From Candidatus Hecatella orcuttiae (lineage in GTDB: Archaea > Thermoproteota > Bathyarchaeia > Hecatellales > Hecatellaceae), in contig MTLY02000003.1 in the NCBI GenBank assembly GCA_002011035.2, positions 320,001 to 384,000 of the forward strand: a stretch of DNA of 64,000 bases, in the 5' to 3' direction. Each line of letters starts with the position of its first letter. The first letter of the stretch is position 1. Under the pieces are notes generated by a model. It worked only from the letters and a program-made list of their open reading frames with translations, did no database searches and was not told the DNA's origin. Below, piece after piece: positions 30,351-55,211 of the stretch. A program made the translations under genes and the position numbers.

Positions 30351-32621
30351 TCACCAGCGACGTTTGAAGGCTTCCAATTTCCCTCCATGAGTCCACCATT
30401 GAAGGGGAAGATAGAGGGTTGACTCCCTAGCGTAAACGTCTATCTGGGTTGTGCCACAGGAAGGACAGCGGTGCAGGTAGCCTCTGAAAGTTTTTTGACA
30501 TAGCCCGCAGTAGGTGAGAGGGAAATCGTAGGCGAAAAAGCTGAGGCCGAAGCTCTCGCAGAGGTTAACCGTTTGTTTAAGAAGCTTCTGAGGGGATCTT
30601 TCCTCTTCTAAGGTGACGGCGGTGAAATGGCCGCCTTTTAACAGCGGATGAAATCTCCCCTCAATCCTCAGCCTTTCATCTTGGGGGAGAGCTGATTCTT
30701 CTGGAAGGAGAGGAACATAGGTGTAGTAGGGGTGTTCTTTTCCACCTTGAACATTAACCATTTCCCAGCCGTACTTTTTCCCATCCAACTCTGCTAGGCG
30801 TGAGGAAGCTTCACTGCCTACGATCTGCGAAACAGCTAACCTTATCCCTTTTTCTTCGGAGATGGCGGCTGCGAGGTTGGCTATGTTTTCCACCAGCCGA
30901 ACGGCGAAATGTTGAGGCATAAGCTCCTCGTAGATGTCGTAGCCTACATGAACCCTCACAGCTTCGTTGAGACCTACTATGCCAATGGTCTTCACTGAAT
31001 TATTCAGCCTGTAATAGGCTTCGCCGCTTTCCACATGGGTTAGACTGGGCAGCAGTCCTTGCTTCATCCGGTCCTCTATTTCCTTTCCTTTTATCTCCAA
31101 AGCCTTAACTGCTGTTTTAACTGCTTTTTCCAAGTAGCTGAAAAACTTGGAGTCGTTTCCCTTAGCCTCATAAGCTATCCGGGGTAGGTTTAAGGCTACC
31201 GTGTTCAGGCATCCCGTCCGAAGCGTATCTACCTCCCAGTCGCCTGTCCACTCTCCTCCAATCCTCTCCCCGCTGGCCAGATAGCTGGAGTTTTCTTCTG
31301 GCTCCTTGGTTAAATTGGCTATGTAAATGGCGCCGTATTTGGCGGCTAGCTCATGGGCCTTAACCAAAATTTCCTCGCATTTTTTGCTGAAACTTCCAGC
31401 CCTGAGCTTTAACACCAGCCGAGGATTGAAGAGAGGTTTTCTTGAACTCAAATCCAAGGCTGCCTCCAGCAGGAGGCTCGCAAGAGTCTGAGCTTCTTCT
31501 TCGAAGCTTTGATATTCCTCCTTTCCGCCGCTTCGTCTGACAGCTGTCAGCGCCCTAAGACGTTTAGGGATGAAAACCTCTAAACCGAGAGTCACCCCTC
31601 CGCTTCCAAAGCTTTTGAATGCTACCCGGGTGAGAAAGCCCTTCAAAGCCGCTTGAGCTTCCGCCTTAGGGATTCCTCGAAGATGAGGTGCTAAGAATAT
31701 GTTGAAATAGTCGAAGGCTTGCTGTCCTGAAATTTCTCCCCCGAAGGCGTCTATCAACCCCTCAACCATCAGCAGGGAATCCGAGAAACTATCAGGAGGC
31801 GCAAGCGAAGGGGCAGCGTGACTTGTAGCTTTGAAGCCCCCGGCAAGAAAAGGTCTGAGGTCGTGGTAGATGCTCTGAGGCCTCAGCACCCAATAACCGG
31901 AATCGCTTAAGTGGATCTGGCCTGAAAGATGGGCGTCGGCTAGGTCCCTAGGAAGGACGTTGAGAAGCATGAACTCCGTCATAACTTGGCTCCCAGCCGC
32001 GGCATGGGCGTGTTCCACGGTCAATCCTCTTTCAGCTGCCTTGGCAACGGTTTTCTCCACATCCCGCACAGGCATTCCCAACCGGGTAAGCTTGTGACGG
32101 TAGTCTTCCAGGCCCTTTTCCAAGAGGATGGCGTTGACAAACTCTCTGATGAGGGGCGCTGTAAGGTAGGTAATGGGAAGTTTCAGCATACGCTCCTCAG
32201 CTTCGGCGGAGATCTTATCAGCCACCTCAGGGAGAGCCCCTGCCTCCTCAACGAGGGAGAGGGCAATCTTGCTCCGGTCAAATTCTTCCATGGTATACCG
32301 GGAGGTCCGAACAAACAACCGCCCTGCTTTTCTCAAGGCGTATTCGGCCAGCTCTTGGGAGAAACTGTTAACCCTCAAGCCCAGCTCGGTTATCTGGTAC
32401 CGCCTCGTCCCTTTCTCCAAGCCCACGAGGCCTGTGGAGAGAAGGTTTTTAAGATGGTAAACGAATTTCCCCGCATCCTTAGTGGGCGCAAGTTTTAGGA
32501 ATTCCATGATCTCACTGTAAGTCATAGGTCCACGGGTTGCAAGGAGTTTAAGGATCTGAAGCCTGATGGGCGCTGCCACGGCGCTGAAAACGTCGACTCC
32601 TGTCCTAGGCTTTTTAACCAT
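30351..32621 (-). CDS. ArsR-type HTH + ATP-cone + NrdD-like (class III RNR) protein lacking catalytic residues
   Basis: N-terminal IRLQILKLL...FVYHLKNL wHTH; ATP-cone VRTS...FDRSKI; WTGDWEVDTLRTG, LNLPRIA; CxxC..CxxC; ARESTLY in place of RxxGY. Confidence 0.85.
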   Translation of the reverse strand: MVKKPRTGVDVFSAVAAPIRLQILKLLATRGPMTYSEIMEFLKLAPTKDAGKFVYHLKNLLSTGLVGLEKGTRRYQITELGLRVNSFSQELAEYALRKAGRLFVRTSRYTMEEFDRSKIALSLVEEAGALPEVADKISAEAEERMLKLPITYLTAPLIREFVNAILLEKGLEDYRHKLTRLGMPVRDVEKTVAKAAERGLTVEHAHAAAGSQVMTEFMLLNVLPRDLADAHLSGQIHLSDSGYWVLRPQSIYHDLRPFLAGGFKATSHAAPSLAPPDSFSDSLLMVEGLIDAFGGEISGQQAFDYFNIFLAPHLRGIPKAEAQAALKGFLTRVAFKSFGSGGVTLGLEVFIPKRLRALTAVRRSGGKEEYQSFEEEAQTLASLLLEAALDLSSRKPLFNPRLVLKLRAGSFSKKCEEILVKAHELAAKYGAIYIANLTKEPEENSSYLASGERIGGEWTGDWEVDTLRTGCLNTVALNLPRIAYEAKGNDSKFFSYLEKAVKTAVKALEIKGKEIEDRMKQGLLPSLTHVESGEAYYRLNNSVKTIGIVGLNEAVRVHVGYDIYEELMPQHFAVRLVENIANLAAAISEEKGIRLAVSQIVGSEASSRLAELDGKKYGWEMVNVQGGKEHPYYTYVPLLPEESALPQDERLRIEGRFHPLLKGGHFTAVTLEEERSPQKLLKQTVNLCESFGLSFFAYDFPLTYCGLCQKTFRGYLHRCPSCGTTQIDVYARESTLYLPLQWWTHGGKLEAFKRRW

Positions 32622-32821
32622 GGGGTCTCAGATCCTTTAACATCGAAAGATAGCTGTTCAGTCTTAAGTTATACTTTGTCTATTATTTTAGACTTCCACC
32701 TAAAAAGTCTTCTTCCACATTTAAAAAGCCTTTCACCTAGGTTAAACCGTTGAAGGCTGAGATACCCTTGAAACCGGTTTCTGGAAAACGGTTTTATACG
32801 GTTACAGGGGGAGGTAGTATC

Positions 32822-33967
32822 ATGGTTAAACCCTCTCTGGGAAAGGTATTCCTCGGAATTTTACTTCTCTTGCTAACGCTACCTATGGTGGCGTATTCAA
32901 CTCCTCAAGCTCCCACTGTTCAAACCGACAAAGAAACCTATGGAAGCGGCGACTACCTCAACGTCACAGGCACGGCTGAGCCGAATTCGCTGGTTTCTCT
33001 GCAAGTTCTTGACCCTGAAGGAAACCTGAAAGGTGTTGCTCAAGCCCGTGTTTCTTCCCAAGGAACCTACGCTGTGGCGAAGGTGTACAGGTTTCAAGAG
33101 GACGATCCGGAAGGAGAATGGAGGGTGATAGTGTACCAAGGAGGCATTTTCTCCGAGGCCAAGTTTCAGTTCACACTCCCAGCGCCGACACCTACACCTA
33201 CACCAACCCCGACCCTTACACCCACGCCTACTCCAACTCCGACGCCTACGCCAACCCCTACGCCTACTCCCACCCCCTCCCCCACCCCCACGCCAACACC
33301 CACACCCACAGCCACCCCCACACCGACTCCCTCTGCTGAAGGGAAAAAATGCATCATCGCCACCACCACTTATGGCTCAGAGCTGGCTCCGGAAGTGCAA
33401 TTTCTGAGGGGTTTCAGGGAAAACGTCGCCCTCAAAACCTTCGCCGGAGCCCAGTTCATGAGGGTTTTCAACGCTTGGTACTATTCCTTCAGTCCTTCAG
33501 TGGCCGGCTTCATAGAGGCCCACCCGTCTGTTAAAGGAGTGGTGAAAGTTTTTCTCTACCCCCTCATCGGAATCCTTCACTTGGCCGTGGCGGCCAACAC
33601 CGTCTTCAGCTTTAACGGTGAACTTGGTATCACCGTAGCCGGGCTTGTAGCCGGCGCCCTGATAGGAGTTGTATACTTTGCCCCCCCAACCGCTCTGGTT
33701 CTCTACGCTGCGAGGAGGAAGAAGGAAACCCTGGCCCTAGGAAGCCTGTTGAAGCCTGTCTCAATGCTTTGGCTTCTGGGTGCCTCCCTGATCCTTGTAG
33801 GTGAACTGGTTGCCTCCGAGTTTCTCATGATGGCTGCGACAGGATTGTTTGTCAGCTCAACGGTAGCCATCACCGCAACCGCGGTGGCATTAAAAATTTT
33901 GAATGTCCAACGAAAAGCTACCGCTAGTCTCCTTTCCAAAGGAAGGGCCTCAAACAGGCGAGGCTGA
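32822..33967 (+). CDS. Surface protein: signal peptide, Ig-like domain, (PT)n linker, CFI-box-CTERM domain
   Basis: TDKETY Ig pattern, PT repeats, [25 protein letters not shown]-terminal TMs; GGAGGT SD. Confidence 0.88.
33185..33331 (+). repeat. Pro-Thr dipeptide low-complexity linker
   Basis: Degenerate CCNACN hexamers encoding about 24 PT units. Confidence 0.85.
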
Positions 33968-36124: not shown

Positions 36125-36203
36125 GGGGTGGTGGTCCAGCATGGTCTACGATTCCCGGCTCGGGCCCGGGAGGTCGGGAGTTCAAATCTCCCCCACCCCA
36201 CCA
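36125..36203 (+). tRNA. tRNA-Pro(CGG), intronless
   Basis: Acceptor GGGGTGG/CCACCCC-A-CCA, anticodon arm CCCGG-CTCGGGC-CCGGG, T arm GGGAG-TTCAAAT-CTCCC. Confidence 0.93.
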
Positions 36204-43670: not shown

Positions 43671-44116
43671 CTGTCGACGACCTCCCAGTCGATGACGACG
43701 GTCTTATTCACGTCAGGAAAACTCTTTCTAGGGGCAGCTTATTTACCTTTCCGCTGGAGGGATGAGGCTAGCACCTATACTGGTGTGGCGCAAGTCCCTA
43801 ACAAGTCATACAATTAGCTTTCCCGTCTATGGATCTGCAAAAATGGTTCTTGAAAAACAGCAACAAGAAGCTTCCAGTCGCAACAGGTTCTCAAGCTCAG
43901 CATAATAATTTTCGATTTTTGTAAAGTTTTTAAACACAAAAGGGAAAAGATAAATTTCACATCTAAACTGAAGGTTGCCTGAATTGATTTAACGTTAAAA
44001 ATACTCCGTGAAAGAAAACTTTTTTCACGGTAGATATCTGCCCCAAAAGGTTGATTATCGACGTTTAAAGCCAAAAACATAGTTTTCTTGGTGAGGATGG
44101 ACTGTTGAGACGGCCA

Positions 44117-44245
44117 ATGATGGATGTTTTAGTTTCAGGTTTCTTCGGAATGTTTGGACGCATTACATTTTTTGTCTTAGTCTTGTTAACTGCAAGGCTT
44201 CTCGGTCCCGAAGATTACATGCCTAGGTACGCAGAAGATGCATGA
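44117..44245 (+). pseudogene. Wzx flippase N-terminal fragment
   Basis: ...FVLVLLTARLLGPEDY, the typical Wzx TM1-loop motif, ending abruptly at about 44218. Confidence 0.65.
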
Positions 44246-44931
44246 GAAAAGGGCAGCCTCATGAAGTCCACATTTGTGGGCAGGAAGAGCCGACGACTTC
44301 AAAATCATGATACTTATCGACGGGAAAATCATCTCTGTCTGGAAAAGGTAAATAGTCAAGATTTTCCAGAAGTTTTCTTCTGTTTACTGTAACGGTATCG
44401 TTAGCCCTGAACGCTAGGCCGTCTATCTCCTTAAGCCGATTTACACCGTCCTTGCTTAAGGTCTCTACGAGTTCTTTTAAGGTAACTTCATATTCTCCTA
44501 TCAAGCAAAAATCTATGTGGTTATATCTTTCTAGGATTTCACGTGGGAAGACCGAGGAGTGTGTGCCCGTAAGTACGATATAGCATCCTACCTATTCCTT
44601 AATTTCTCGAGCAAGTTCAACATCATAGGGAAAACTTATCGTCGGTGTTTCGATTAAAACTCGGTCAGGGTTATGTTTTTTTACAACGTTAACAAGTTCT
44701 TTACGTGTTAAATCCATTGCTACACCATCGATACCCTTGACATCGGCGTCCGTATCACGTTTAAGCAAAGCTGTTGCATAACCAAGATAGAAAGAATATG
44801 GACAGTAATGGCCCGTTTCACATTTTTCATCCGAGAAGATACTGAAGCTCCAACGGCTACCGACTTTAATAAAGTGTCTAGAGGAATTCTCCTCGTCGAA
44901 AGCGGCGGGGATTTAAAAGCAGAACCTTCAA
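44219..44931 (-). pseudogene. B12-binding radical SAM protein pseudogene
   Basis: MKVLLLNP start, frameshift near 44908, TAG at 44592-94, IGEYE and LPFPDR, TGA replacing R in TSRGCPF, frameshift before CIFC; truncated. Confidence 0.82.
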
Positions 44932-45062
44932 ATTTATCACGAACCTAACAGAACTTAAAAGTAGAGAGATAATTTAAGCCTTACTTATTTCTAAGCATTG
45001 ATAGTCGTGGTGGTTACTGGTTAAAAAGCTTAAATTTTTAATTAAATAGAGGTAAAGGGAGC

Positions 45063-45605
45063 ATGGGTAAGAATTTAGTCCTTGACGTGGGTTGTGGTAG
45101 AAGTAAGCAGGGGGACGTTAACGTTGACATAGACCCAACGGTTAAACCTGACGTCGTTGCCGACATGCACCACTTGCCGTTTCAAGATAAAAGTTTTAAC
45201 AAGGTTTTTATTACTCATGCTTTTGAGCATAGCGGTAATCCTGAACTGTTACTGAGAGAACTCACGAGGGTTTCTAAAACGCAAGTGACGATAATCGTGC
45301 CAAACGCTTTAGCGCTTTTCTATTTTGCCATCTATTTAATAACTGCTCATAGATGGAATGCTGTGAGAAGTTGGCTTTATGGTGTTGGGCAATCTCCTTC
45401 AGCACGACATAGAAGGATTTACACTCCGTTTTCACTTTACAGGTTTATACAGAGGGAAGGGTTTAGATTAAGCGTAAAGACGAAGTCACGTTGGTATTAC
45501 AGAAGGTGCATGAGGATGTTGATGGGAATTTTAAGTAAAATTTCAGTGGTTTTTGGCGACGAAGTCGAAGCGACGATATACTTAGAAGAAGCGGGAACTA
45601 ACTGA
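45063..45605 (+). CDS. Class I SAM-dependent methyltransferase (type 11)
   Basis: VLDVGCG, DVVADMHHLPFQDKSF, FEH. Confidence 0.88.
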   Translation: MGKNLVLDVGCGRSKQGDVNVDIDPTVKPDVVADMHHLPFQDKSFNKVFITHAFEHSGNPELLLRELTRVSKTQVTIIVPNALALFYFAIYLITAHRWNAVRSWLYGVGQSPSARHRRIYTPFSLYRFIQREGFRLSVKTKSRWYYRRCMRMLMGILSKISVVFGDEVEATIYLEEAGTN

Positions 45606-45663
45606 TCGTGAAGCATTCATAACTTAGTCTAATGTCTTCCCGGAGAAGTGATGGCGGGGAACC

Positions 45664-46599
45664 ATGAACCTCTTCTGGTTAACACTGCACTATACACCTA
45701 AGAAGCCGCTGGGAGGCGTTAACAGATATAGCGTGGAAGTGGTGGAAAGGCTTAAACGATTTATCGACGTTAAAGTTATTCACGACGGAAAACCTTGGAT
45801 TGGGACCTCCATCTGGGTTTTAAAAACAGCCCTAAAACTAAGAAAGTTAAAGAAGGATGAGCCTTCGATAATACATGCAGCAAATTTTAGAGCAGCGTTG
45901 CCACCGGCTTTGGCGGAGAAAAAATTTGTTTTAACCTTCCATGATGTAGCGCCCATGAGAATGTATAAGTTTAGAGGTTATCTCCAAAGGTTGGCGGCTA
46001 GAAAGGCTGCGGCCATAATAACCCCAACGAACGCCGTTAGAGAAGCCTTACTCAGGGAAGCACCCAACGTCGCCGATAAGGTTAGGGTGATTCCTAATGG
46101 CGTTGATTGTAGAAAATTTAAACCCATCCTAAAGGAAAAATCTGAAAAACCAACCATAGGTTATGTGGGTAGGAGGGCAGCTTATAAGGTTAGTCTTATT
46201 CCAAGGATAGTCAGATTACTTCCATCCTATTACAGGTTTAAATTTGCTGAAGGAGATCTTGACGACACTCAGCTTTGCATTTTTTATAACTCATGTCATT
46301 TAATTCTTGTTTCAAGCCCGCCATATGCTGAAGGTTTTTCGCTCGTAACGGTTGAAGCCTTAGCGTGCGGGACACCGGTTGTAGCGACCGATAATCCGGC
46401 CATCAGAGAAATCGTGAACGGTTATGCATTTTATAGCAGATATGAAGTCGAAGAGTTTGTTAAAAAAATTAGGTGGGTAATCGAAAACTATGATGATGCA
46501 AGGAAAAAGGCGTTAGAAGGAAGGAAGTATGTGGATGAAAACCTAGACTGGGATAAAACGGCGGCCATGAACCTCAAATTATATAAAGAACTACTCTAG
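45664..46599 (+). CDS. GT4 glycosyltransferase
   Basis: TFHD, IPNGVD, EGFSLVTVEALACGTPVV. Confidence 0.92.
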   Translation: MNLFWLTLHYTPKKPLGGVNRYSVEVVERLKRFIDVKVIHDGKPWIGTSIWVLKTALKLRKLKKDEPSIIHAANFRAALPPALAEKKFVLTFHDVAPMRMYKFRGYLQRLAARKAAAIITPTNAVREALLREAPNVADKVRVIPNGVDCRKFKPILKEKSEKPTIGYVGRRAAYKVSLIPRIVRLLPSYYRFKFAEGDLDDTQLCIFYNSCHLILVSSPPYAEGFSLVTVEALACGTPVVATDNPAIREIVNGYAFYSRYEVEEFVKKIRWVIENYDDARKKALEGRKYVDENLDWDKTAAMNLKLYKELL

Positions 46600-47918: not shown

Positions 47919-48025
47919 AGGGTTGCCTTTTTCTCAAGGGAGGGGAAACACTAAAAGTAGGTTTCCTTCTATCTTAGGTGGAGGCTTCTCCGACCGTTGA
48001 GGGGGAATGAAACCTGGCCCGGTGG

Positions 48026-50026
48026 ATGATCGGCTCCGCTTGGCCGTACATCAACTACATGCCTCACCTAGGGACCATCATAGGCTCCGTTCTCTCCGCG
48101 GATGTGGCGGCCAGATACCTGAGGATGAAGGGAGAGGACGTGGTCCTCGTCAGCGGCTCGGATGAGCATGGAACCCCCATCGAACTGGAGGCGGTCAGGC
48201 AGGGGATTCCCCCGAAAAAGCTCACCGACGAAAACCACCGGAAGGTTAAGAAGCTGTTTGAAAGGTGGGCGCTTTCCTTCGACAACTACACCCGAACGGA
48301 GAGCCCTGTCCACATCAGGTTCGTCCAGGATTTTTTCAGAAAAATCTACTCCAACGGCTACATCTTCACTGAGGAGGTGGTCTTCCCCCACTGCCCCCGC
48401 TGCCGCCGTTTTCTACCGGACAGGTTTATTCAGGGGAAATGCCCCCGCTGCGGCTTCGAAGCCGCCCGGGGAGACCAGTGTGACGCCTGCGGCTGGCCTT
48501 TGGATCCCTCCAAGCTTGTGGAGCCGGTTTGCGCCCTCTGCGGGGAAACCCCCAGCCCTAAGACGACCAAGCACTGGTATTTCGACCTGCCTCGCTTTAC
48601 CCATCAACTGGAAAGCTATGTCAAGGAGAATCCCCGCCTGCCTGAGAACGCCCGGAACTTCTCCCTGAACCTGATCCGGGAGGGCTTGAAGCCTAGGCCT
48701 ATAACCCGGGATACGGAGTGGGGTATCCCCGCTCCCTTCCCAGGCGCGGAGGGTAAGACTATCTACGTGTGGATGGAGGCGGTCTTGGGATATGTTTCCG
48801 CCACCTTGGAGCATTTCCAGCGGCTGGGGCAGGAGGACCGGTGGAGGGATTTCTGGCTTGACCCGGAGGCCAGAACCGTCTACTTCATCGGGAAGGACAA
48901 CATTCCCTTCCACACCATCATCCTCCCTGCGCTCCTTCTGGCTTCGGGGGAAGGCTACAACCTTCCTTGGACGGTGAACTCCACGGAGTTCCTGATGTTC
49001 GAGGGGCAGAAGTTTTCCAAAAGCCGCCGGATAGGCATCTGGATCGATGAGGCGCTGCGGATGTTCCCAGCGGACTATTGGAGGTACACCCTCATTTCCA
49101 TAAGGCCTGAGGTCAAGGACACCAGCTTCTCCTGGAGCACCTTCTTGGAGAAGGTTAACTCCGACCTCAACGACACCTTCGGAAACTTGGTCCACAGGAC
49201 GCTGACCTTCATTGGCAGGCATTTTGAAGGAAAAATTCCTACCCCTGAAGCCTTGGACATCTACGACGGGGAAATGTTGAAGGTTGCCAAAGAAGCGCAG
49301 AAAGAGTTTGAAAGAAACTTGGAGCAGTTTAAGCTTCAAGCCGCCGTTCTAACCGTCATGGACCTCGCCCGGAAAGCCAACAAGTACGTCAACGACAAAG
49401 AACCTTGGAGAACCGTGAAAACAGAGCCCTCCAAGGCAGCGGCCACCCTCTACGTGGCTGCCAAGATTGTGAAAACCCTAGGCATCCTCCTACAGCCCTT
49501 CATTCCCTCCACGGCGGATGTGCTTCTGGAAAAATTCGGAGTAAAACCGGGGGAGTCCCGGAAACTTTGGGATGAACTCCGGAAAGAACTAGCCTCCGGG
49601 CAGAAGCTGGGCAAACCTAAAGTTCTCTTTAAGAAGACAAGTTTGGAGGAGGTGGAGAAAAAGCTGAAAGAACTGGAGCAGGCTGGGAAAAAGGAGGAAA
49701 GGATTTCAGCGGAGGAGCTTTCAAGGCTAAACTTGAGGGTAGGCCGGATCGTCGATGTTCAACCGGTAGCCGGGTCGAGGAAGCTTCTCCGGTTGAAGAT
49801 AGACCTAGGAGAGGAGGGTGTGAAAGCAGCGGCAGCCGGCTTGGGCGAGTGCTACCAGCCTGAGGAGCTGAGGGATAGGCTGGTGGCGGTGGTGGCTAAC
49901 ATTCAGCCTGTCAAAATCTTAGGCGTCCACTCTGAGGTCATGGTGCTGGCCGCCGACGACGGCACGGGGAAGTTCGCCTTGCTGACTCCGGACAGGGCTG
50001 TGAAATCAGGGAGCAAGATACGCTGA
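48026..50026 (+). CDS. metG: Methionyl-tRNA synthetase with C-terminal OB tRNA-binding domain
   Basis: WPYIN..PHLG, SGSDEHG, Zn knuckles, GKDNIPFH, KFSKS. Confidence 0.97.
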   Translation: MIGSAWPYINYMPHLGTIIGSVLSADVAARYLRMKGEDVVLVSGSDEHGTPIELEAVRQGIPPKKLTDENHRKVKKLFERWALSFDNYTRTESPVHIRFVQDFFRKIYSNGYIFTEEVVFPHCPRCRRFLPDRFIQGKCPRCGFEAARGDQCDACGWPLDPSKLVEPVCALCGETPSPKTTKHWYFDLPRFTHQLESYVKENPRLPENARNFSLNLIREGLKPRPITRDTEWGIPAPFPGAEGKTIYVWMEAVLGYVSATLEHFQRLGQEDRWRDFWLDPEARTVYFIGKDNIPFHTIILPALLLASGEGYNLPWTVNSTEFLMFEGQKFSKSRRIGIWIDEALRMFPADYWRYTLISIRPEVKDTSFSWSTFLEKVNSDLNDTFGNLVHRTLTFIGRHFEGKIPTPEALDIYDGEMLKVAKEAQKEFERNLEQFKLQAAVLTVMDLARKANKYVNDKEPWRTVKTEPSKAAATLYVAAKIVKTLGILLQPFIPSTADVLLEKFGVKPGESRKLWDELRKELASGQKLGKPKVLFKKTSLEEVEKKLKELEQAGKKEERISAEELSRLNLRVGRIVDVQPVAGSRKLLRLKIDLGEEGVKAAAAGLGECYQPEELRDRLVAVVANIQPVKILGVHSEVMVLAADDGTGKFALLTPDRAVKSGSKIR

Positions 50027-50697
50027 TGCAGCTTAAACTCGACCTCCACGTTCACACAGTCTACTCGGGGGACAGTGTCATCACCCTTAAAAAAGCCGTG
50101 GAGGCCGCTGAGAAGGCGGGACTGGACGGCATAGCCATAACCGACCACGACACCGTTGATGCTTTAAAGGAGATACCCTCCCACTCCTCCATTCTCATTC
50201 TCGAAGGCATAGAAGTCTCCAGTCTCCAAGGCCACATCCTAGGCCTAGGAGTCTCAGCGCGCATCCCACAAGGCCTCCCCGCATCCGACACCGTTGACAG
50301 AATCCGCCGTCTGGGAGGTGTGGCGGTGGTGGCCCATCCCTTCAACTTCCTGAAGAGAAGCCTAAACGGCGAGGCCATTAGGCGGCTGAAGCCTGACGCC
50401 GTGGAGGCTATCAACGCCTCATCCATTCTGCCCCTTACCATCCGGAAGGCTGTGCAGGCTGCGAGGGAACTGGGCCTCCCCCAGGTGGGGGGGAGCGACT
50501 CCCATATCCCCGAGACCATCGGGAAAGCCTACACGCTGGTGGAGGTGGAGGAAGCCAGCCGGGAGGCTGTTCTCCAAGCCCTCAAGGCTGGGAAAACCAG
50601 GGCGGAGGGGAGGAAGATCTCTCCCGTGGATTTTCTGCGCAAGATAGGCTGGCAGATGAAGATAAAAGGGGGATGCACGTTCCTCCCCTTCAGATGA
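50026..50697 (+). CDS. PHP-domain phosphoesterase
   Basis: DLHVHT, AITDHD, AHP, GGSDSH. Confidence 0.92.
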   Translation: MQLKLDLHVHTVYSGDSVITLKKAVEAAEKAGLDGIAITDHDTVDALKEIPSHSSILILEGIEVSSLQGHILGLGVSARIPQGLPASDTVDRIRRLGGVAVVAHPFNFLKRSLNGEAIRRLKPDAVEAINASSILPLTIRKAVQAARELGLPQVGGSDSHIPETIGKAYTLVEVEEASREAVLQALKAGKTRAEGRKISPVDFLRKIGWQMKIKGGCTFLPFR

Positions 50698-50788
50698 AAG
50701 TTTTCCCTTCAGCCCTCGCGCAGCTCAACTTTTCCGGGATGAAACTTTTTTGAGAGGCTACTCTAAAAACAACTTGGGAAAGCGGCTG

Positions 50789-51250
50789 TTGAAAGTCTAC
50801 ACCGTGGGGCATTCCACTCGAAGCCTTCCAGAGTTTCTGAGGCTTCTCAAAGCCTACAGTGTCCGCGTCCTCGTTGACGTGCGCAGGTTTCCCGGCTCCA
50901 AGAAGTTTCCCCATTTCAACAGAGAAAACTTGGAGGCAGTGCTCCCCCGGAAAGGTATCCGCTATCTCTGGCTGGGAAAGTCTTTGGGGGGATTCAGGAA
51001 GGGAGGCTACCGTGAGCATCTGAAGACCCCGGAGTTCAAGACGGGACTTGAGAAGGTGACTGAGACAGCGGCTGAGGCCTCCGCAGCCATCATGTGCGCT
51101 GAAGCCCTATGGTTTCGATGCCATCGGAGGTTCATAGCCGACAGGCTGGCTCGCCGCGGATTCACGGTCCTCCACATCTTGGATGAGAAGAGGACGTATC
51201 TCCACCGCCTAGGCCGCCGAGTTCGGGGGGAGGCGGAGGCTAAAACCTAA
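50789..51250 (+). CDS. DUF488 family protein
   Basis: YTVGHS, VDVRRFP, LGG, MCAE...CHR. Confidence 0.9.
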   Translation: MKVYTVGHSTRSLPEFLRLLKAYSVRVLVDVRRFPGSKKFPHFNRENLEAVLPRKGIRYLWLGKSLGGFRKGGYREHLKTPEFKTGLEKVTETAAEASAAIMCAEALWFRCHRRFIADRLARRGFTVLHILDEKRTYLHRLGRRVRGEAEAKT

Positions 51251-52194
51251 GGCTTTTCGCCTAGGAATTCCTCCAAGACCGACTGGACGGTGCCTTCCCT
51301 CAGCTTCAGAACGTGGTAGGCTATGTCCTCCAGGCTTTTCAGCCTCAGCCTCCTAAGCCTTTCGAAGCCCCATCCCAAGCATTTCACGGCGGAGATGAGG
51401 CAGGCGGCCACCACCGCCTTGGTCCAGTCTCGGCTCAGCGCGTAGGCTGCCAGAAGGGTGCCGCACCAGGTGTCCCCGGCGCCGGTGGTATCCTTCAACG
51501 TCGCCTTCAACCCGCTGAGGGCGGGAATCATCTGCATCCGTCCCTCCTCCACGAGGATGGCTCCCATCTGGCCTAGGGTCACAGCGAGCCTTTTGGCTTT
51601 GAGGGCTGAGAGGGCGGAGGTGAGGCTGCCTGTTTCAGCCAAGGCTGAGGCCTCTTGGTCGTTGACCACCATGAGGTCTGCCTTTTCAGCCAGCTTCCTC
51701 AGGATTCGCCTATTTTCAGCCTTCCCCAAGTAATCGGGGGAGCTGTGGATGGAAACCCAGGTTTCAGGGCAGAGCTTCCTGATTCTCGCCGCAAATTTCT
51801 CCACCTTCTGAGGCCGCATGGGGGCTAGGTGGACGTAAACGTCCCGGCTGACCCAGTGGGCTGGGAGGTCCGCTACCTTGATGGCTGCTCCAGCCCCCAG
51901 TCTGACCGCGTCGTAGCGGGCTTGAAAGTTTTGGTCGTAGCTGATGTCGAAGGAGGTGGTGGGAGCGTTTACTCTTCTGATGAGGGAGCCGGGAAAGGTA
52001 GAGTGGAGGAAGCTGAGCTGTTTGAAGTCCTTCCCCACCGCGGAGATGAGCTTAACCCTGTCGTAGAGAACCTTAGCGCCCAGCGCCGCGTAGAGGGCAG
52101 CCCCGCCCAGCTGAAGCCTTTCCCCCCACGGATTCCTGACCCGGTCGAGGGAAACATGTCCGATGAAGAGGAGGGTAGGCCCGGCCAAAGGCAA
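51247..52194 (-). CDS. PfkB-family carbohydrate/nucleoside kinase
   Basis: GGAA, NDQEA, VTLG..GA, DTTGAGD. Confidence 0.92.
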   Translation of the reverse strand: MPLAGPTLLFIGHVSLDRVRNPWGERLQLGGAALYAALGAKVLYDRVKLISAVGKDFKQLSFLHSTFPGSLIRRVNAPTTSFDISYDQNFQARYDAVRLGAGAAIKVADLPAHWVSRDVYVHLAPMRPQKVEKFAARIRKLCPETWVSIHSSPDYLGKAENRRILRKLAEKADLMVVNDQEASALAETGSLTSALSALKAKRLAVTLGQMGAILVEEGRMQMIPALSGLKATLKDTTGAGDTWCGTLLAAYALSRDWTKAVVAACLISAVKCLGWGFERLRRLRLKSLEDIAYHVLKLREGTVQSVLEEFLGEKP

Positions 52195-52298
52195 CCATCA
52201 AAAATAAGACCGCCCCTAAACTTTTAACAGTATCTCCTTCTTGGCGACGGAGGCCGTGAGGCGTTCTATGGCACAGCCATCCATGGCCATGGATTTTT

Positions 52299-52847
52299 TC
52301 AGCCGCCGGTTTTTTCCAGGCCGCTTACCACCAGGTCCAGCTGTTTGAGCCATTCTTCCACCTTGAGGTTGGGGAAGGACCAGGTGGCGTGGGGTTGATA
52401 GAAACGGTCGAGGGAGACGGTCTTAAGGCTGGGGGCGAAATGCTTCAACGCGGAGAGTATGACCCATTCCACATAATAATGGATGCCTCCCACCAAGACC
52501 AGATCGTACCGGCCGGCTCCGTCTAAGCCTTTCCACCCCGGGTCGCAGAGCCGGTTGGCTATGTCCATGGCCGGCATCCAAACAGCGCCTTGGAAGCCTT
52601 TTTTGAGGAATTCTCCCACCGTCTGAGCGGTGGCCACCACCCCCATCTTCCCAGCTTTGGCTATGAGGACCGCGTAGTCGATGAGGCGCCTGTCGCCTAA
52701 GCCGGCTTGGGAGGCTTCGGGGCCTACGATGAGCAGCGGCCTTCTCGCCCTTCTGACCATGGCCACCACCACCTCAGGCTTGGTGATGACTGAAGCCTTC
52801 AAAGGCCCGGGGACTTCTGCCTTCTGCCAGGGTTCCGCTCTCATCAT
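52299..52847 (-). CDS. cdhB: CO dehydrogenase/acetyl-CoA synthase epsilon subunit
   Basis: RRPLLIVG, DPGWKGLDG.G.YD, YQPHA.WSFPN; adjacent to cdhA. Confidence 0.93.
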   Translation of the reverse strand: MMRAEPWQKAEVPGPLKASVITKPEVVVAMVRRARRPLLIVGPEASQAGLGDRRLIDYAVLIAKAGKMGVVATAQTVGEFLKKGFQGAVWMPAMDIANRLCDPGWKGLDGAGRYDLVLVGGIHYYVEWVILSALKHFAPSLKTVSLDRFYQPHATWSFPNLKVEEWLKQLDLVVSGLEKTGG

Positions 52848-55211
52848 TTACCGGGCCTCCTTAGGTTTCGCCAGCCTCTCCAGCAGGGTGGGGTCGGGGG
52901 TCTCTCTTTCCCGCCAGCCCTCGGCTTTCAGGATCTCCATGACCTCGTCTCTGAGGGTTATGGGGATGTCCGTCTCCTTCCGGACTAGCAGATGGAGGTC
53001 GTCGGGCATCACCCCGTAATACCGCTTGTGCAAGTCCACGTAGTGGGCCAGCTTTATCGCCCGCCCCTTGGCTGTGTCGTTCGCCCTCATGCAAAGCTTC
53101 ACCAGCATCACCAACGCTTCCTCCTTGGTTTCAGCCGTGAAGAACAAGTGCTCGGGAACAGGGCCCACGTAGACCTTCTCCCCCGTGCGGGCGTCGTAGA
53201 CATACCAGTTGCTTTCCACTTCCTTCCTACCCAAGAGCATGCGCCTGTACTTGGAGCCATGAGGGCCTACGACCACGGGAATCCCCAGCCTCCAGAAGCC
53301 GCTGGCGATGGAGGCCGCCTTCTGGGACATGGCCCCCCAGGCGATGCCCGCGGCGCCCACCCGGTTGTGGATGTAGTCGGCTATCTCCTCGTAGTTGCCC
53401 CTCAGGTTCCGTCTGGCGAAGATGCTGGCTATCTTGATGGCCGCTCCAGCTATGTGGGAATTAGCCACGCAGGAGCCCACGTTGACCAAGCCTCCAGCGT
53501 CGAACACCCCCGGGTAGGCTTCGTAGAGGCTTTGACCGTCCTCGTTCTTGTACATACCGATGGACATGGCGGCGCAGCCGGAGGCGACCACGATGAACCG
53601 GCGTTTCAGAAACTCCTCAGCCATCTCAGCCACCTCCCGCCCTCCACCCGGGTAGTTGGCGCAGCCCACCAAGGCTATGACGCCGGGTATCTCCCCTAAA
53701 ACCAGAGGCCCTCCGACCTTCCGAATTTCCACATCTTGAATGGCGCCTCTTCCAACCCGAACCTTGTAGGCTTCTTCTCTGAGTTTCTCCTCCGAAGCTT
53801 TCACGATGCCGCTGTGGATGGGTATCTCCTGGGGGCAGGCGTCTTCGCAGCGGGCGCAGCCAATGCAGGCGGCGCAAAGGTCAGCCAGCCCGGTGAGAAC
53901 CCCGGAAGCCGCTGCCTTCACAGCCTCAGGGATGGGCAGGTCGTTGGGGCACGCCCGCCGGCATTCCTCGCATTCTGTGCATTTTTTAGCCAACTCCACC
54001 AGTTCATCCTGCCCGGGAAGGGCTCCGAACTTTCTCCTTTTTGGGGCTACCTCTATGGCTGTTCTCACGGCCACCTCTCCCACCTTAGCGGGGTCGAGGA
54101 TTAAGGCGCCCGGGGTCTTCCCTTCCACGAGGTCTTTCACGATTTCGTCGACAGGGTCGCCGGTTCTGTTGGGCAGGCCCGCGCACTGCTTTTCCGTGCT
54201 GGCGATGAAGGGGACCTTAGCCTTCTCCGCCTCGGAGAGGAGGTCGGTGCGGATGCACTGCTCGTCGACCACCGCCACGTCGGGGATGCCGCTTCGGATG
54301 AAGCGAAGCTGCCATGAGATGGGGCCGATGATTTTAGCTTTGGAATTGTACCGAGTGAGGTCGTGGGCGGTGCAGCATATTCCCGCTACTTCCACAGAGC
54401 CTTGGAGGCTGTTCTCAGAGAGATAGTCCATGATGTAGGCGGCGGGGGGCACGTTGTGGCCGACGACGAGGATGACGGGCTTAGAAGTGTCGACGCTTCC
54501 AAAACCTATATTTGCCAAGGGAGCCTCAGGGTCAGCCTTAGGGTAGGGGTAGGCGGAAACCTGAGCTATGTCAGCCACCTCCATAGCCACTTGGTCGACC
54601 ATCCCTGCGTGGAAGACCTTGGACTCGAAGTCCAGCGCGTCGCCTTCTTGACCTGTGTGGGTGGCGGAGAGCAAGTGGGTTATCTGGGATTCAACATAGT
54701 CCAAAGCTTCATCCAAATCCCCTAAGGTTTTAGGCTTGATCCCGCAGACCAGCCGGAGAATGGGCGCCTCCACTTCCACCTCTCCGGTTCCCACTTGGAT
54801 GGGATGGTCTCTCCCGTAGATTTTTGAAAGATGCTCCACCAAATGTCGGGCGTGGCTTGCATGGGTGGCCGCTCCCATGCAGCAGGCCAGCAGGACGATT
54901 CTAGACTGCTGAGCCGCCAGGTTCAGCCCGCAGGCGCCTTTCTTTCCCCGGGTTAGGTCGCATTTTCCCATGGTGCAAAGGCAGCAGAGGTCGCAGTAGG
55001 GCAGGTAGAAGGGCCTGTAGCGGCTCAGAAGCTTAAGGTCCCAATCTCGAAGGTCGACGGCGGAGGGAAAAGGGGTGGGGCCTTGAGGTTCCTCCCAAGG
55101 CTCTGTTATGGTTTTGCCTAAGACCAGTTCCAGGTCTCTGAAGACTCCTAGACCTGTCTTCAGCTCTTTAACCTTTAAGTGCAAGCTTTTCTTCATATTT
55201 TCCTTCACCAT
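52848..55211 (-). CDS. cdhA: CO dehydrogenase/acetyl-CoA synthase alpha subunit
   Basis: CDLCCLCTMGKC, GHNV, GICCT, DEQC, two ferredoxin motifs, GCAN, SGC, GSCV. Confidence 0.97.
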   Translation of the reverse strand: MVKENMKKSLHLKVKELKTGLGVFRDLELVLGKTITEPWEEPQGPTPFPSAVDLRDWDLKLLSRYRPFYLPYCDLCCLCTMGKCDLTRGKKGACGLNLAAQQSRIVLLACCMGAATHASHARHLVEHLSKIYGRDHPIQVGTGEVEVEAPILRLVCGIKPKTLGDLDEALDYVESQITHLLSATHTGQEGDALDFESKVFHAGMVDQVAMEVADIAQVSAYPYPKADPEAPLANIGFGSVDTSKPVILVVGHNVPPAAYIMDYLSENSLQGSVEVAGICCTAHDLTRYNSKAKIIGPISWQLRFIRSGIPDVAVVDEQCIRTDLLSEAEKAKVPFIASTEKQCAGLPNRTGDPVDEIVKDLVEGKTPGALILDPAKVGEVAVRTAIEVAPKRRKFGALPGQDELVELAKKCTECEECRRACPNDLPIPEAVKAAASGVLTGLADLCAACIGCARCEDACPQEIPIHSGIVKASEEKLREEAYKVRVGRGAIQDVEIRKVGGPLVLGEIPGVIALVGCANYPGGGREVAEMAEEFLKRRFIVVASGCAAMSIGMYKNEDGQSLYEAYPGVFDAGGLVNVGSCVANSHIAGAAIKIASIFARRNLRGNYEEIADYIHNRVGAAGIAWGAMSQKAASIASGFWRLGIPVVVGPHGSKYRRMLLGRKEVESNWYVYDARTGEKVYVGPVPEHLFFTAETKEEALVMLVKLCMRANDTAKGRAIKLAHYVDLHKRYYGVMPDDLHLLVRKETDIPITLRDEVMEILKAEGWRERETPDPTLLERLAKPKEAR

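Follow-up and report, generated by a model that had tools for sequence, protein, structure and literature searches.

Introduction

In bacteria, expression of ribonucleotide reductase (RNR) genes is controlled by NrdR, a protein built from a zinc ribbon and an ATP-cone, in which the nucleotide state sets the repression of RNR genes of several classes (PMC9110341), and which the same source describes as rare in archaea. How archaea control transcription of their RNR genes is largely unknown. For the class III RNR, NrdD, solved structures assign the radical chemistry to a small set of residues: a radical glycine (Gly711 within RITGY in Prevotella copri, PMC11226230; Gly621 within RIVGY in Thermotoga maritima, PMC4493059), a thiyl-radical cysteine (Cys400 in Streptococcus thermophilus, PMC12662201) that forms the third residue of the finger-loop motif MGCR or MCCR (10.1101/2022.04.23.489257), and a cysteine on strand beta-A (Cys125 in T. 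maritima, PMC4493059; Cys171 in P. copri, PMC11226230).

Here we describe a gene from Candidatus Hecatella orcuttiae (Bathyarchaeia) that borrows from both of these systems. It lies in a stretch of 64,000 nucleotides (contig MTLY02000003.1, positions 320,001 to 384,000 of the forward strand; hereafter the window), and its product, P0001, joins an N-terminal ArsR-like winged helix-turn-helix (HTH) to an ATP-cone-like domain and a full-length NrdD-like body in which the radical-chemistry residues are replaced. On balance, we judge that P0001 is probably an RNR-linked pseudoenzyme transcription factor, and the family to which it belongs offers a concrete, testable candidate for RNR gene control in archaea. 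Like NrdR, P0001 couples an ATP-cone to a DNA-binding domain and its family has a genomic tie to RNR genes. Unlike NrdR, its DNA-binding domain is an ArsR-type winged HTH rather than a zinc ribbon, the NrdR model TIGR00244 does not match it, its cone hairpin reads VRTSR instead of V-x-K-R and is followed by a dead NrdD barrel of approximately 550 residues, no NrdR boxes are known or were found for it, and its family distribution is archaeal (Thermoproteota). By analogy, then, P0001 would act in an NrdR-like manner without membership in NrdR.

With canonical archaeal NrdD, P0001 shares the fold, the VRTS variant of the cone, an NLPR motif and a Cys4 zinc ribbon, whereas the canonical RPFC motif, the double-cysteine motif (QCCR, QCCA or MCCR), the SR(I/V)TGYY motif and co-occurrence with NrdG are all missing from P0001, which instead has the HTH that canonical enzymes lack. 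Resemblance to ArsR/SmtB regulators extends to matches above cut-off to two of their HTH models and to a predicted dimer formed by the first helix together with the one that follows the wing, but the sensor of P0001 would be the fused ATP-cone and barrel and not a metal site. Catalytically dead RNRs are known from herpesviruses, whose class I large-subunit homologs, such as M45 and UL45, act via protein-protein contacts. In that case, too, an RNR large-subunit fold was kept after catalytic loss and reused, yet those proteins are class I homologs of animal viruses, whereas P0001 is an HTH-fused class III homolog from an archaeon. In the literature searched, which leaves subscription journals and supplements outside, we found no published HTH-NrdD fusion or dead class III RNR, though an earlier account may exist; a search of a 2026 review of glycyl-radical enzymes (PMC13450708) found no passage on pseudoenzymes. 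With moderate confidence, we regard the family as a case of ATP-cone-based RNR gene control on a pseudoenzyme scaffold for which we found no earlier description.

Results

P0001 is an intact HTH, ATP-cone and NrdD fusion

The gene encoding P0001 is read from the minus strand without a single internal stop over its 756 codons, and its main parts are as follows.

30351 to 32621, minus strand: whole gene for P0001 (HTH, ATP-cone and NrdD-like pseudoenzyme), an uninterrupted open reading frame (ORF) of 756 residues
32367 to 32594, minus strand: winged HTH, ArsR-like / DUF7347, residues 10-85 (Pfam)
32100 to 32315, minus strand: ATP-cone-like domain, residues 103-174 (Pfam PF03477, below cut-off)
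30522 to 32021, minus strand: NrdD-type alpha/beta barrel core, catalytically degraded, residues 201-700 (PF13597 and profile alignments to NrdDs in the PDB)
30456 to 30509, minus strand: Cys4 zinc ribbon C705-x2-C708-x10-C719-x2-C722, read from the sequence and invariant in 40 of 40 relatives

The HTH scores above the Pfam cut-offs for DUF7347 (35.3 bits against 27.6), HTH_20 (29.0 against 27) and HTH_5/ArsR (26.4 against 22), while the NCBIfam model for ArsR metalloregulators, NF033788, reaches 28.2 bits and stays below its cut-off of 55. Its recognition helix lies around D49-A-G-K-F-V-Y-H-L57. The cone carries the hairpin V104-R-T-S-R108, the usual form being V-x-K-R-x-G, and PF03477 is listed in the precomputed Pfam annotation of most P0001 relatives. 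Residues 201-754 match the NRDD family PF13597 with 243.8 bits (cut-off 26.2), whereas the NrdD equivalog model of NCBIfam, TIGR02487, gives 257.9 bits and falls short of its cut-off of 326.35. The ORF and the Pfam matches thus bear out the order of parts that had been read from the DNA alone in the original prediction, namely an HTH, an ATP-cone, an NrdD body and a zinc site with no stops.

An AlphaFold2 model of P0001 built with 40 relatives has a mean predicted local distance difference test score (pLDDT) of 88.6 and a predicted template modelling (TM) score of 0.77. When this model was compared with the PDB using Foldseek, the best matching folds were class III RNRs, led by 8p2s_B (E 1.8e-26, TM-score on the target 0.70). 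The structural matches comprise the NrdDs of Prevotella copri, Streptococcus thermophilus, Thermotoga maritima and phage T4, with E values from 1.8e-26 to 6e-17 and TM-scores on the target of 0.60-0.75.

We also modelled two copies of residues 1-200 together with two ATP molecules, using the alignment of relatives. The median symmetric-dimer score was 0.47 (runs of 0.50, 0.47 and 0.15), compared with 0.09 for the best of three controls, with contact agreement between runs of at least 68% and a partner pLDDT of at least 74. In calibration, 20 of 30 proteins with a structure solved as a pair attained the mark used for this score, compared with 1 of 23 whose structure is a single chain. The predicted interface consists of residues 7-21 and 80-95, in the first helix and the one following the wing, and resembles the dimers of the ArsR family. 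The models therefore support a symmetric dimer of the N-terminal 200 residues, with the proviso that this pass may stem from likeness to solved ArsR dimers.

The radical-chemistry residues of NrdD are replaced in P0001

Catalytic residues were placed by sequence and profile alignment to solved NrdDs, with residue labels taken from the structure papers. The sites are listed below.

30411 to 30431, minus strand: former glycyl-radical loop A731-R-E-S-T735-L-Y737, with Thr735 in place of the radical Gly
31263 to 31274, minus strand: finger-loop remnant S450-G451-E452-R453, aligned with MGCR
31866 to 31880, minus strand: beta-A strand site P248-Q-S250-I-Y, with Ser250 where canonical NrdDs carry Cys
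31209 to 31211, minus strand: Cys471 of RTGCL, at the beta-F "third cysteine" position, which is Asn435 in P. copri (PMC11226230)

Thr735, within R732-E-S-T735-L-Y, stands opposite both Gly711 of P. copri and Gly621 of T. maritima, and the same column among 40 relatives holds Ala in 18, Thr in 13, Ser in 5, Asp in 3 and Asn in 1, with Gly in none. Alignments to the MGCR loops of T4 and S. thermophilus place Glu452 at the position of the thiyl-radical cysteine; the preceding G451 is invariant (40/40), whereas position 452 varies (Glu 9, Thr 6, Cys 6, Asn 4, Leu 4). On strand beta-A, Ser250 is opposite Cys125 of T. maritima (P248-Q-S250-I against PYC125F), although the N-terminal alignment to that enzyme is weak (2.9 bits) and the register there rests mainly on the alignments to T4, S. 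thermophilus and P. copri. This column is Cys in 17 of 18 canonical archaeal NrdDs and in 0 of 38 HTH-bearing proteins. All three radical-chemistry positions are hence altered, which agrees with the original prediction, whose nucleotide coordinates for the three motifs were correct to within a few bases. Cys471 was considered as a substitute radical cysteine and ruled out: it maps to the beta-F site and not to the finger loop's tip, so that the case named beforehand as fatal to the idea of a dead enzyme, in which the Cys of RTGCL occupies a catalytic site, did not arise. Position 471 itself varies among the 40 relatives (Cys 13, Asn 11, Ser 9).

Loss extends to residues that handle the substrate. 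The triphosphate motif H-x-H-D reads H237-L-S239-D240 in P0001, with Ser239 replacing the equivalent of His114, the triphosphate-motif histidine of T. maritima (PMC4493059); with so weak an alignment to that enzyme, the register at this motif is less certain. That column is His in 18 of 18 canonical archaeal NrdDs and in approximately 3% of HTH-bearing proteins. The substrate-bridging glutamate, Glu581 in P. copri (PMC11226230), is Ser603. The 18 canonical archaeal NrdDs have 72 columns that are at least 85% conserved; in 38 HTH-bearing proteins, 22 of these are kept, 30 are intermediate and 20 are lost. Missing from them are one Asn that never varies in the canonical enzymes and three equally invariant Gln (columns 294, 324 and 327). 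The effector-site residues Gln161, Gln210 and Gln218 of T. maritima (PMC4493059) could not be placed reliably on P0001, where that alignment scores only 2.9 bits. One part of the original prediction, that the RNR nucleotide-binding scaffold is retained as a sensor, is therefore not supported in that form: with the equivalents of His114 and Glu581, the Asn and the three Gln lost, the scaffold looks degraded, and it is the ATP-cone and the HTH that are conserved instead.

The host genome contains no obvious means of activating a class III enzyme. Its assembly comprises 1.75 Mb in three contigs and is 97% complete, such that absences of genes are not absolute. Within it, no NrdG was found at cut-off, the best scores being 57.1 bits for TIGR02495 (cut-off 131.15) and 23.9 bits for TIGR02491 (cut-off 126.1), and the best matches to these models are generic radical-S-adenosylmethionine ORFs of 326-554 residues. 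As a positive control, NrdG was detected at 154-190 bits in three of three Bathyarchaeia genomes with a canonical NrdD. In a further genome (G037), the NrdG model scores 128.5 bits directly beside that genome's canonical NrdD, whereas in a genome with the HTH form only (G031) NrdG was not found and the model reaches only 52 bits. The absence of an adjacent NrdG, part of the original prediction, thus holds, and it extends genome-wide at the cut-offs used.

Collectively, these data indicate that P0001 is almost certainly a non-working RNR. Were it a class III RNR that still worked by way of different residues, or of a Gly or Cys elsewhere, this would account for the full-length NrdD fold, the kept zinc ribbon and the presence of Cys at 471. 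We consider this extremely unlikely given that all three catalytic positions are changed with Cys471 at the beta-F position, that neither the His of the triphosphate motif nor the Glu that bridges to the substrate remains, and that no NrdG was found in the genome at cut-off. In T4 NrdD, the Gly to Ala change yields the oxygen-insensitive mutant used in crystallography (PMC4493059), and relatives of P0001 occur in lineages named Thaumarchaeota, which likewise speaks against a working enzyme.

Catalytic loss accompanies the HTH across a large archaeal family

Among 8000 candidates scored in a word-indexed search with P0001, 1452 had E <= 0.001. The three-part architecture is shared by the best 120 homologs, which are 724-776 residues long with 41-100% identity over 94-100% of the query. 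An exhaustive search of 50% cluster representatives gave 2211 matches at E <= 0.001, 388 of them at E <= 1e-30. Named homologs come from Candidatus Hecatellales, Bathyarchaeota and Bathyarchaeia archaea and are labelled 'anaerobic ribonucleoside-triphosphate reductase', 'hypothetical protein' or 'helix-turn-helix domain-containing protein'; the statement in the original prediction that such fusions are auto-annotated as plain RNRs is thereby confirmed. When the metabolism of Bathyarchaeia or Thaumarchaeota is reconstructed, the first of these labels can falsely imply that deoxyribonucleoside triphosphates (dNTPs) are made anaerobically.

For counts across the family, 267 proteins were aligned to a family hidden Markov model (HMM), leaving aside P0002, which is the window product with a shorter start. 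The HTH is carried by 198 of the 267, and its retention in orthologs, on which the idea of a regulator had been staked, thus held. Among HTH-bearing proteins in which the site in question is aligned, the beta-A Cys is present in 6 of 195, the finger-loop Cys in 54 of 182 and Gly at position 735 in 12 of 149. All three sites are aligned in 166 rows, the other 101 being fragments or C-terminally short forms that were not counted, and in these the full set of three catalytic residues is kept in none of 148 HTH-bearing rows compared with 7 of 18 HTH-less rows. In a large subclade the finger loop is TGCR and Ala stands in place of Gly; a few deep members read R-x-x-G. As judged from these alignments, catalytic loss is an accompaniment of the HTH in a mosaic pattern, and with such cysteines and glycines retained the losses are not uniform across the family. 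Overall, the data favour a conserved and intact pseudo-RNR with an HTH, as first suggested, rather than a decaying gene.

A quick maximum-likelihood tree was inferred with IQ-TREE (LG+G4, midpoint root) from 69 rows chosen among approximately 385 proteins in the family-HMM alignment, with the Shimodaira-Hasegawa-like approximate likelihood ratio test (SH-aLRT) as the only branch support. Canonical and HTH-less proteins fall on one side, as a group of 30 rows with an SH-aLRT of 92, and HTH-bearing proteins on the other; one HTH-less row (P0174) has no settled position among the HTH-bearing proteins. The tree is compatible with a single HTH fusion event and is not proof of one. Two groups placed among the canonical archaeal NrdDs consist of HTH-less degraded NrdDs (P0219, P0225, P0230, P0231, P0259, P0264, P0185, P0198 and P0242), which are 620-730 residues long, retain an ATP-cone and an NrdD core and lack the C-terminal zinc ribbon, the Gly loop and the finger-loop Cys, with some keeping the beta-A motif RPFC. 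On sequence, this looks like independent catalytic loss or a split glycyl-radical domain. A further set of canonical-type NrdDs is 1100-1700 residues long (P0163, P0164, P0168, P0183, P0188, P0193, P0216 and others), keeps SRITGYY and matches the query in two to four stretches; these proteins are probably intein-bearing, and this multi-stretch long form is absent from the HTH-bearing proteins that we looked at.

Of 201 genomes drawn from the whole phylum, 137 contain a match to the module formed by the HTH and cone (first 200 residues), and its presence differs by family, with 26 of 26 genomes positive in the family here designated f19 and 0 of 15 in f28. A search with a distant member as query retrieved proteins of approximately 695 residues from 'Thaumarchaeota', 'Nitrososphaerales' and 'Nitrososphaerota archaeon', some of them from an ocean survey source, which are labelled 'ArsR family transcriptional regulator', 'helix-turn-helix domain-containing protein' or 'anaerobic ribonucleoside-triphosphate reductase'. 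Because Thaumarchaeota and Nitrososphaerales are aerobic ammonia oxidisers, an oxygen-labile glycyl-radical enzyme makes little sense in them. In f19, 20 proteins read from DNA stop 1-3 residues past the zinc ribbon, so that the glycyl loop is missing altogether; their finger loop is degenerate and the beta-A Cys is absent, while NLPR is retained and the zinc ribbon is present in 19 of 20. Their recognition helix reads ESGKFAYHLRKLL compared with DAGKFVYHLKNLL in P0001, with GKF.YHL common to both. Interrupted HTH-NrdD-like genes were also seen in three genomes, one split into ORFs of 591 and 186 residues (G012), one with an in-frame TGA (G003) and one with an in-frame TAA (G016), which could be sequencing errors, decay or recoding.

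Constraint is concentrated in the HTH and ATP-cone

Selection was gauged by column conservation per domain instead of by the ratio of non-synonymous to synonymous substitution rates, because the nearest orthologs have at most 57% protein identity and synonymous sites would be saturated. In the 40-sequence alignment, invariant columns make up 20 of 73 in the ATP-cone, 13 of 76 in the HTH, 6 of 25 in the connector between cone and core, 29 of 500 in the barrel and 0 of 31 in the former Gly loop and tail. Within the HTH, residues D49, A50, G51, F53, Y55, H56 and L57 are invariant. Mean pairwise identity in two HTH-bearing groups is 0.63-0.65 for the cone and 0.30-0.33 for the core, whereas in 18 canonical archaeal NrdDs this order is reversed (cone 0.32, core 0.40) and the Gly loop is the best kept part, with canonical conservation perhaps somewhat understated since the alignment was built on the HTH-family HMM. 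This pattern is as expected if the HTH and cone are functional and the barrel is a scaffold, and we consider it likely that P0001 binds DNA.

The same numbers bear on whether the old barrel might house a new, non-radical chemistry, with the HTH serving autoregulation as in a trigger enzyme. A set of invariant barrel residues (H231, G234, H237, D254, N478-L-P-R481, R608, D613 and Y633) would fit such an enzyme. Against this, the core is the least constrained part of the protein, its finger loop is degenerate or deleted, the C-terminal loop is gone in f19 and no conserved new Cys/His cluster was seen beyond the zinc ribbon, all of which make a trigger enzyme improbable to our minds, though not to the same degree as a working RNR.

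HTH genes of many relatives lie directly upstream of RNR genes of two classes

Across 31 genomes (the host, G000, and 30 relatives), the HTH form is present in 23, and in 11 of those the HTH gene is followed by an RNR gene on the same strand. In five (G014, G016, G019, G021 and G026), the next same-strand gene encodes an HTH-less NrdD paralog with all catalytic motifs present (RPFC, QCCR or QCCA, and SR(I/V)TGYY). These adjacent canonical NrdDs are the closest paralogs of the HTH form, at 33-36% identity. In the other six (G001, G002, G005, G007, G009 and G011), which belong to the host's own family, the next downstream same-strand RNR is a class II type bearing a TSCPD domain, separated from the HTH gene by approximately 160 nucleotides in four genomes and approximately 1 kb in two.

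We extended this comparison to the best 80 named Bathyarchaeia loci of a species-representative collection. The HTH gene is seen in 79, and downstream sequence of 1.5 kb or more is available for 62. Directly downstream in the 62 are 24 canonical nrdD genes and 5 class II genes, giving 29 RNR genes in total. The linkage is tighter still in f19, where an HTH gene and a PF02867 gene occur together in 40 of 41 genomes. A single contig carries both in 36 of these, with the HTH gene directly upstream of its same-strand partner in 35 and the pair arranged as divergent neighbours in the remaining one (G048); the other four genomes are fragmented assemblies that have the genes on different contigs. A dead NrdD bearing an HTH thus adjoins an RNR gene in most f19 genomes and in about half of Bathyarchaeia loci. 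With this adjacency spanning two RNR classes and two archaeal classes, it is very unlikely, as far as gene order can tell, that the HTH gene is unrelated to ribonucleotide reduction, and the initial idea of an archaeal analogue of NrdR gains support from a gene that sits directly upstream of RNR genes of two classes in so many relatives. We consider it likely from this genomic evidence that P0001 controls RNR genes.

Tandem loci of an HTH gene and a canonical nrdD (L038-L042) have aspartate carbamoyltransferase genes on their other side (pyrB-like and pyrI-like, by eye), a recurring neighbourhood with pyrimidine synthesis genes. HMG-CoA reductase often precedes the tandem loci and is the upstream neighbour in two nrdD-linked loci.

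Such tight linkage to RNR catalytic genes could also mean that the protein is a non-catalytic partner or regulatory subunit of an RNR, working with NrdD or binding NrdJ or nucleotides, with the HTH in a minor or non-DNA role. The NrdD dimer fold and the identity of the closest paralogs as adjacent canonical NrdDs fit this arrangement. The class of the would-be partner, on the other hand, varies by lineage, and class II and class III RNRs differ in quaternary structure. Canonical NrdD partners are lacking in the host's own family and were not found in the two f19 genomes tested. Furthermore, the recognition helix is among the most conserved segments of the protein, and the downstream RNR gene of f19 has its own TATA-like element, which fits a regulator and its target. 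We therefore rate an RNR partner as unlikely, and a pseudoenzyme transcription factor acting on RNR genes remains the account that we prefer.

In the host genome, P0001 is the sole match to PF13597, so there is no other NrdD, and NrdR is likewise unmatched there by TIGR00244. The separate RNR that one would look for was found in duplicate, both copies being PF02867 proteins of class II type encoded on the same contig as P0001.

Host contig with P0001 (PF02867): class II-type RNR with ATP-cone, lgN and lgC domains, 708 residues
Host contig with P0001 (PF02867): class II-type RNR with lgN, lgC and a C-terminal TSCPD domain and Cys-rich tail, 750 residues

The two nrdJ-type genes are at 63 kb (63.4 kb) and 444 kb (443.6 kb) of the contig and the P0001 gene is at 350 kb. 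Two class II-type paralogs are thus found in one small genome, and only the TSCPD type adjoins the HTH gene in sister genera. Because the P0001 gene is separated from the RNR genes, its product would act in trans in this host.

Promoter regions offer candidate operators

We searched the presumed promoter of the P0001 gene, and the corresponding regions of relatives, for operators.

32622 to 32749, no strand assigned: divergent intergenic region, presumed promoter, holding a candidate operator only

Within positions 32690-32739 are three direct copies of GTG(G/A)AAG, at -115, -97 and -78 from the ATG and 18-19 nucleotides apart, each followed by an A/T-rich, TATA-like stretch. The background frequency of this word in the window is 0.83 per kb. 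The repeats are not conserved upstream of orthologs and were spotted post hoc, and are therefore a lead only. A scan for sigma-70 promoters and intrinsic terminators, which does not cover archaeal promoters, yielded nothing above shuffled sequence.

In f19, the word GATC is over-represented around the promoters of the HTH and nrdJ genes, with 122 occurrences in 20 genomes compared with 28.5 +/- 5.3 in 500 shuffles. Its density is 12.3 per kb upstream of the HTH gene and 11.5 per kb in the gap between HTH and RNR genes, against 3.79 per kb in a control of 29.8 kb of non-coding DNA from six f19 genomes, although f19 genomes are mutually related and the enrichment is accordingly a lead and not proof. 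These sites often take the form TGATC(A/T) in an A/T-rich context (L160-L179) and are candidate operators. At many f19 loci, a partly palindromic element, GTGTCAA-N5-7-TTGA(A/C/T)C, was also noticed by eye approximately 60-70 nucleotides before the TATA-like element of the RNR gene and is another candidate operator.

A proposed NrdR-like role and the evidence that weighs on it

Based on these genomic and structural data, we propose that an archaeal class III RNR with an ATP-cone acquired an N-terminal ArsR-type winged HTH and lost its radical chemistry. The resulting protein would be dimeric, with the NrdD barrel and the ArsR-type helices (residues 7-21 and 80-95) holding two HTHs together, and the dimer would bind operators at RNR promoters and probably at its own promoter. 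Adenine nucleotides (ATP or deoxyadenosine triphosphate, dATP) on the cone would set DNA affinity or oligomeric state, as in NrdR, and the role left to the dead barrel would be that of a scaffold for dimerisation and allostery. We see the chances that the ligand is ATP or dATP bound at the cone as evenly balanced. A wider version of this proposal takes the family to fill the place of NrdR in archaea, as a master regulator of how dNTPs are made that senses the adenine-nucleotide (or dNTP) state through cone and barrel and switches class II and class III RNR genes through its winged HTH; we put it forward tentatively, at a little under an even chance.

Several observations weigh against this proposal. 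The ATP-cone of P0001 scores 23.8 bits against PF03477, under the cut-off of 25.8, and carries T106-S107 where the cones of E. coli and S. thermophilus have the Lys-Arg pair that contacts phosphates (PMC12662201). Adjacent, catalytically intact NrdDs share this VRTS variant, which is for that reason a lineage trait and not decay. The finger-loop Cys and the Gly kept by part of the HTH-bearing family are not explained by a regulator model. In the window, the P0001 gene has no adjacent RNR gene, and no RNR gene adjoins the HTH gene in 33 of the 62 Bathyarchaeia loci. Finally, no operator common to HTH-gene and RNR-gene promoters was found in Bathyarchaeia: among words of 6-8 nucleotides in 23 HTH-gene and 34 RNR-gene upstream regions, only A/T-rich words resembling the TATA box or the B recognition element exceeded shuffled sequence, and GATC is not enriched in Bathyarchaeia promoters (1.1 per kb, compared with 2.2 for the window).

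Some of these points would be natural if P0001 were a transcription factor on a dead NrdD whose target is something other than RNR genes, for example the MOFRL and pyruvate kinase genes, or whose ligand is something other than ATP or dATP. The window gene heads a same-strand run that includes a MOFRL/DUF4147 gene and pyruvate kinase, over half of the Bathyarchaeia loci counted above have no RNR neighbour, HMG-CoA reductase recurs upstream, and the substrate residues and probable effector residues of the barrel have been remodelled. Set against this are an adjacency to RNR genes that is far above chance in two RNR classes and two archaeal classes and the identity of the best-conserved part as an ATP-cone, a domain known from RNRs and NrdR. 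We hold such a target or ligand to be unlikely, if the least unlikely of the alternatives, and continue to favour control of RNR genes.

If the wider proposal is true, the family would represent an ancient radical enzyme turned sensor. No pseudoenzyme would have come from a class III RNR before it, and control of RNR genes through an ATP-cone would have been invented independently. This regulator would then span Bathyarchaeia and ammonia-oxidising Thaumarchaeota, which rank among the most abundant archaea on Earth. Testing is realistic, given that ammonia oxidisers that can be cultivated are the source of some relatives.

Other features of the window

Downstream of the P0001 gene on the same strand, after a gap of 93 nucleotides to the next ORF, are the genes for the MOFRL/DUF4147 protein and pyruvate kinase. 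Upstream, the opposite strand encodes a membrane protein rich in Pro and Thr, a universal stress protein and HMG-CoA reductase. The ORF at 32750-33967 (plus strand, 405 residues) has no Pfam match. Its product starts with a hydrophobic segment and ends in a hydrophobic, multi-pass region, with a long (T/P)-rich repeat (TPTPTPTP...) separating the two, and is on this basis probably secreted or membrane-anchored. A gene for tRNA-Pro (CGG) at 36125-36203 on the plus strand is the only RNA gene found in the window. The G+C fraction is approximately 0.52-0.54 over most of the window, falling to 0.41 at 44001-46000 and rising to 0.57-0.60 at 48001-54000.

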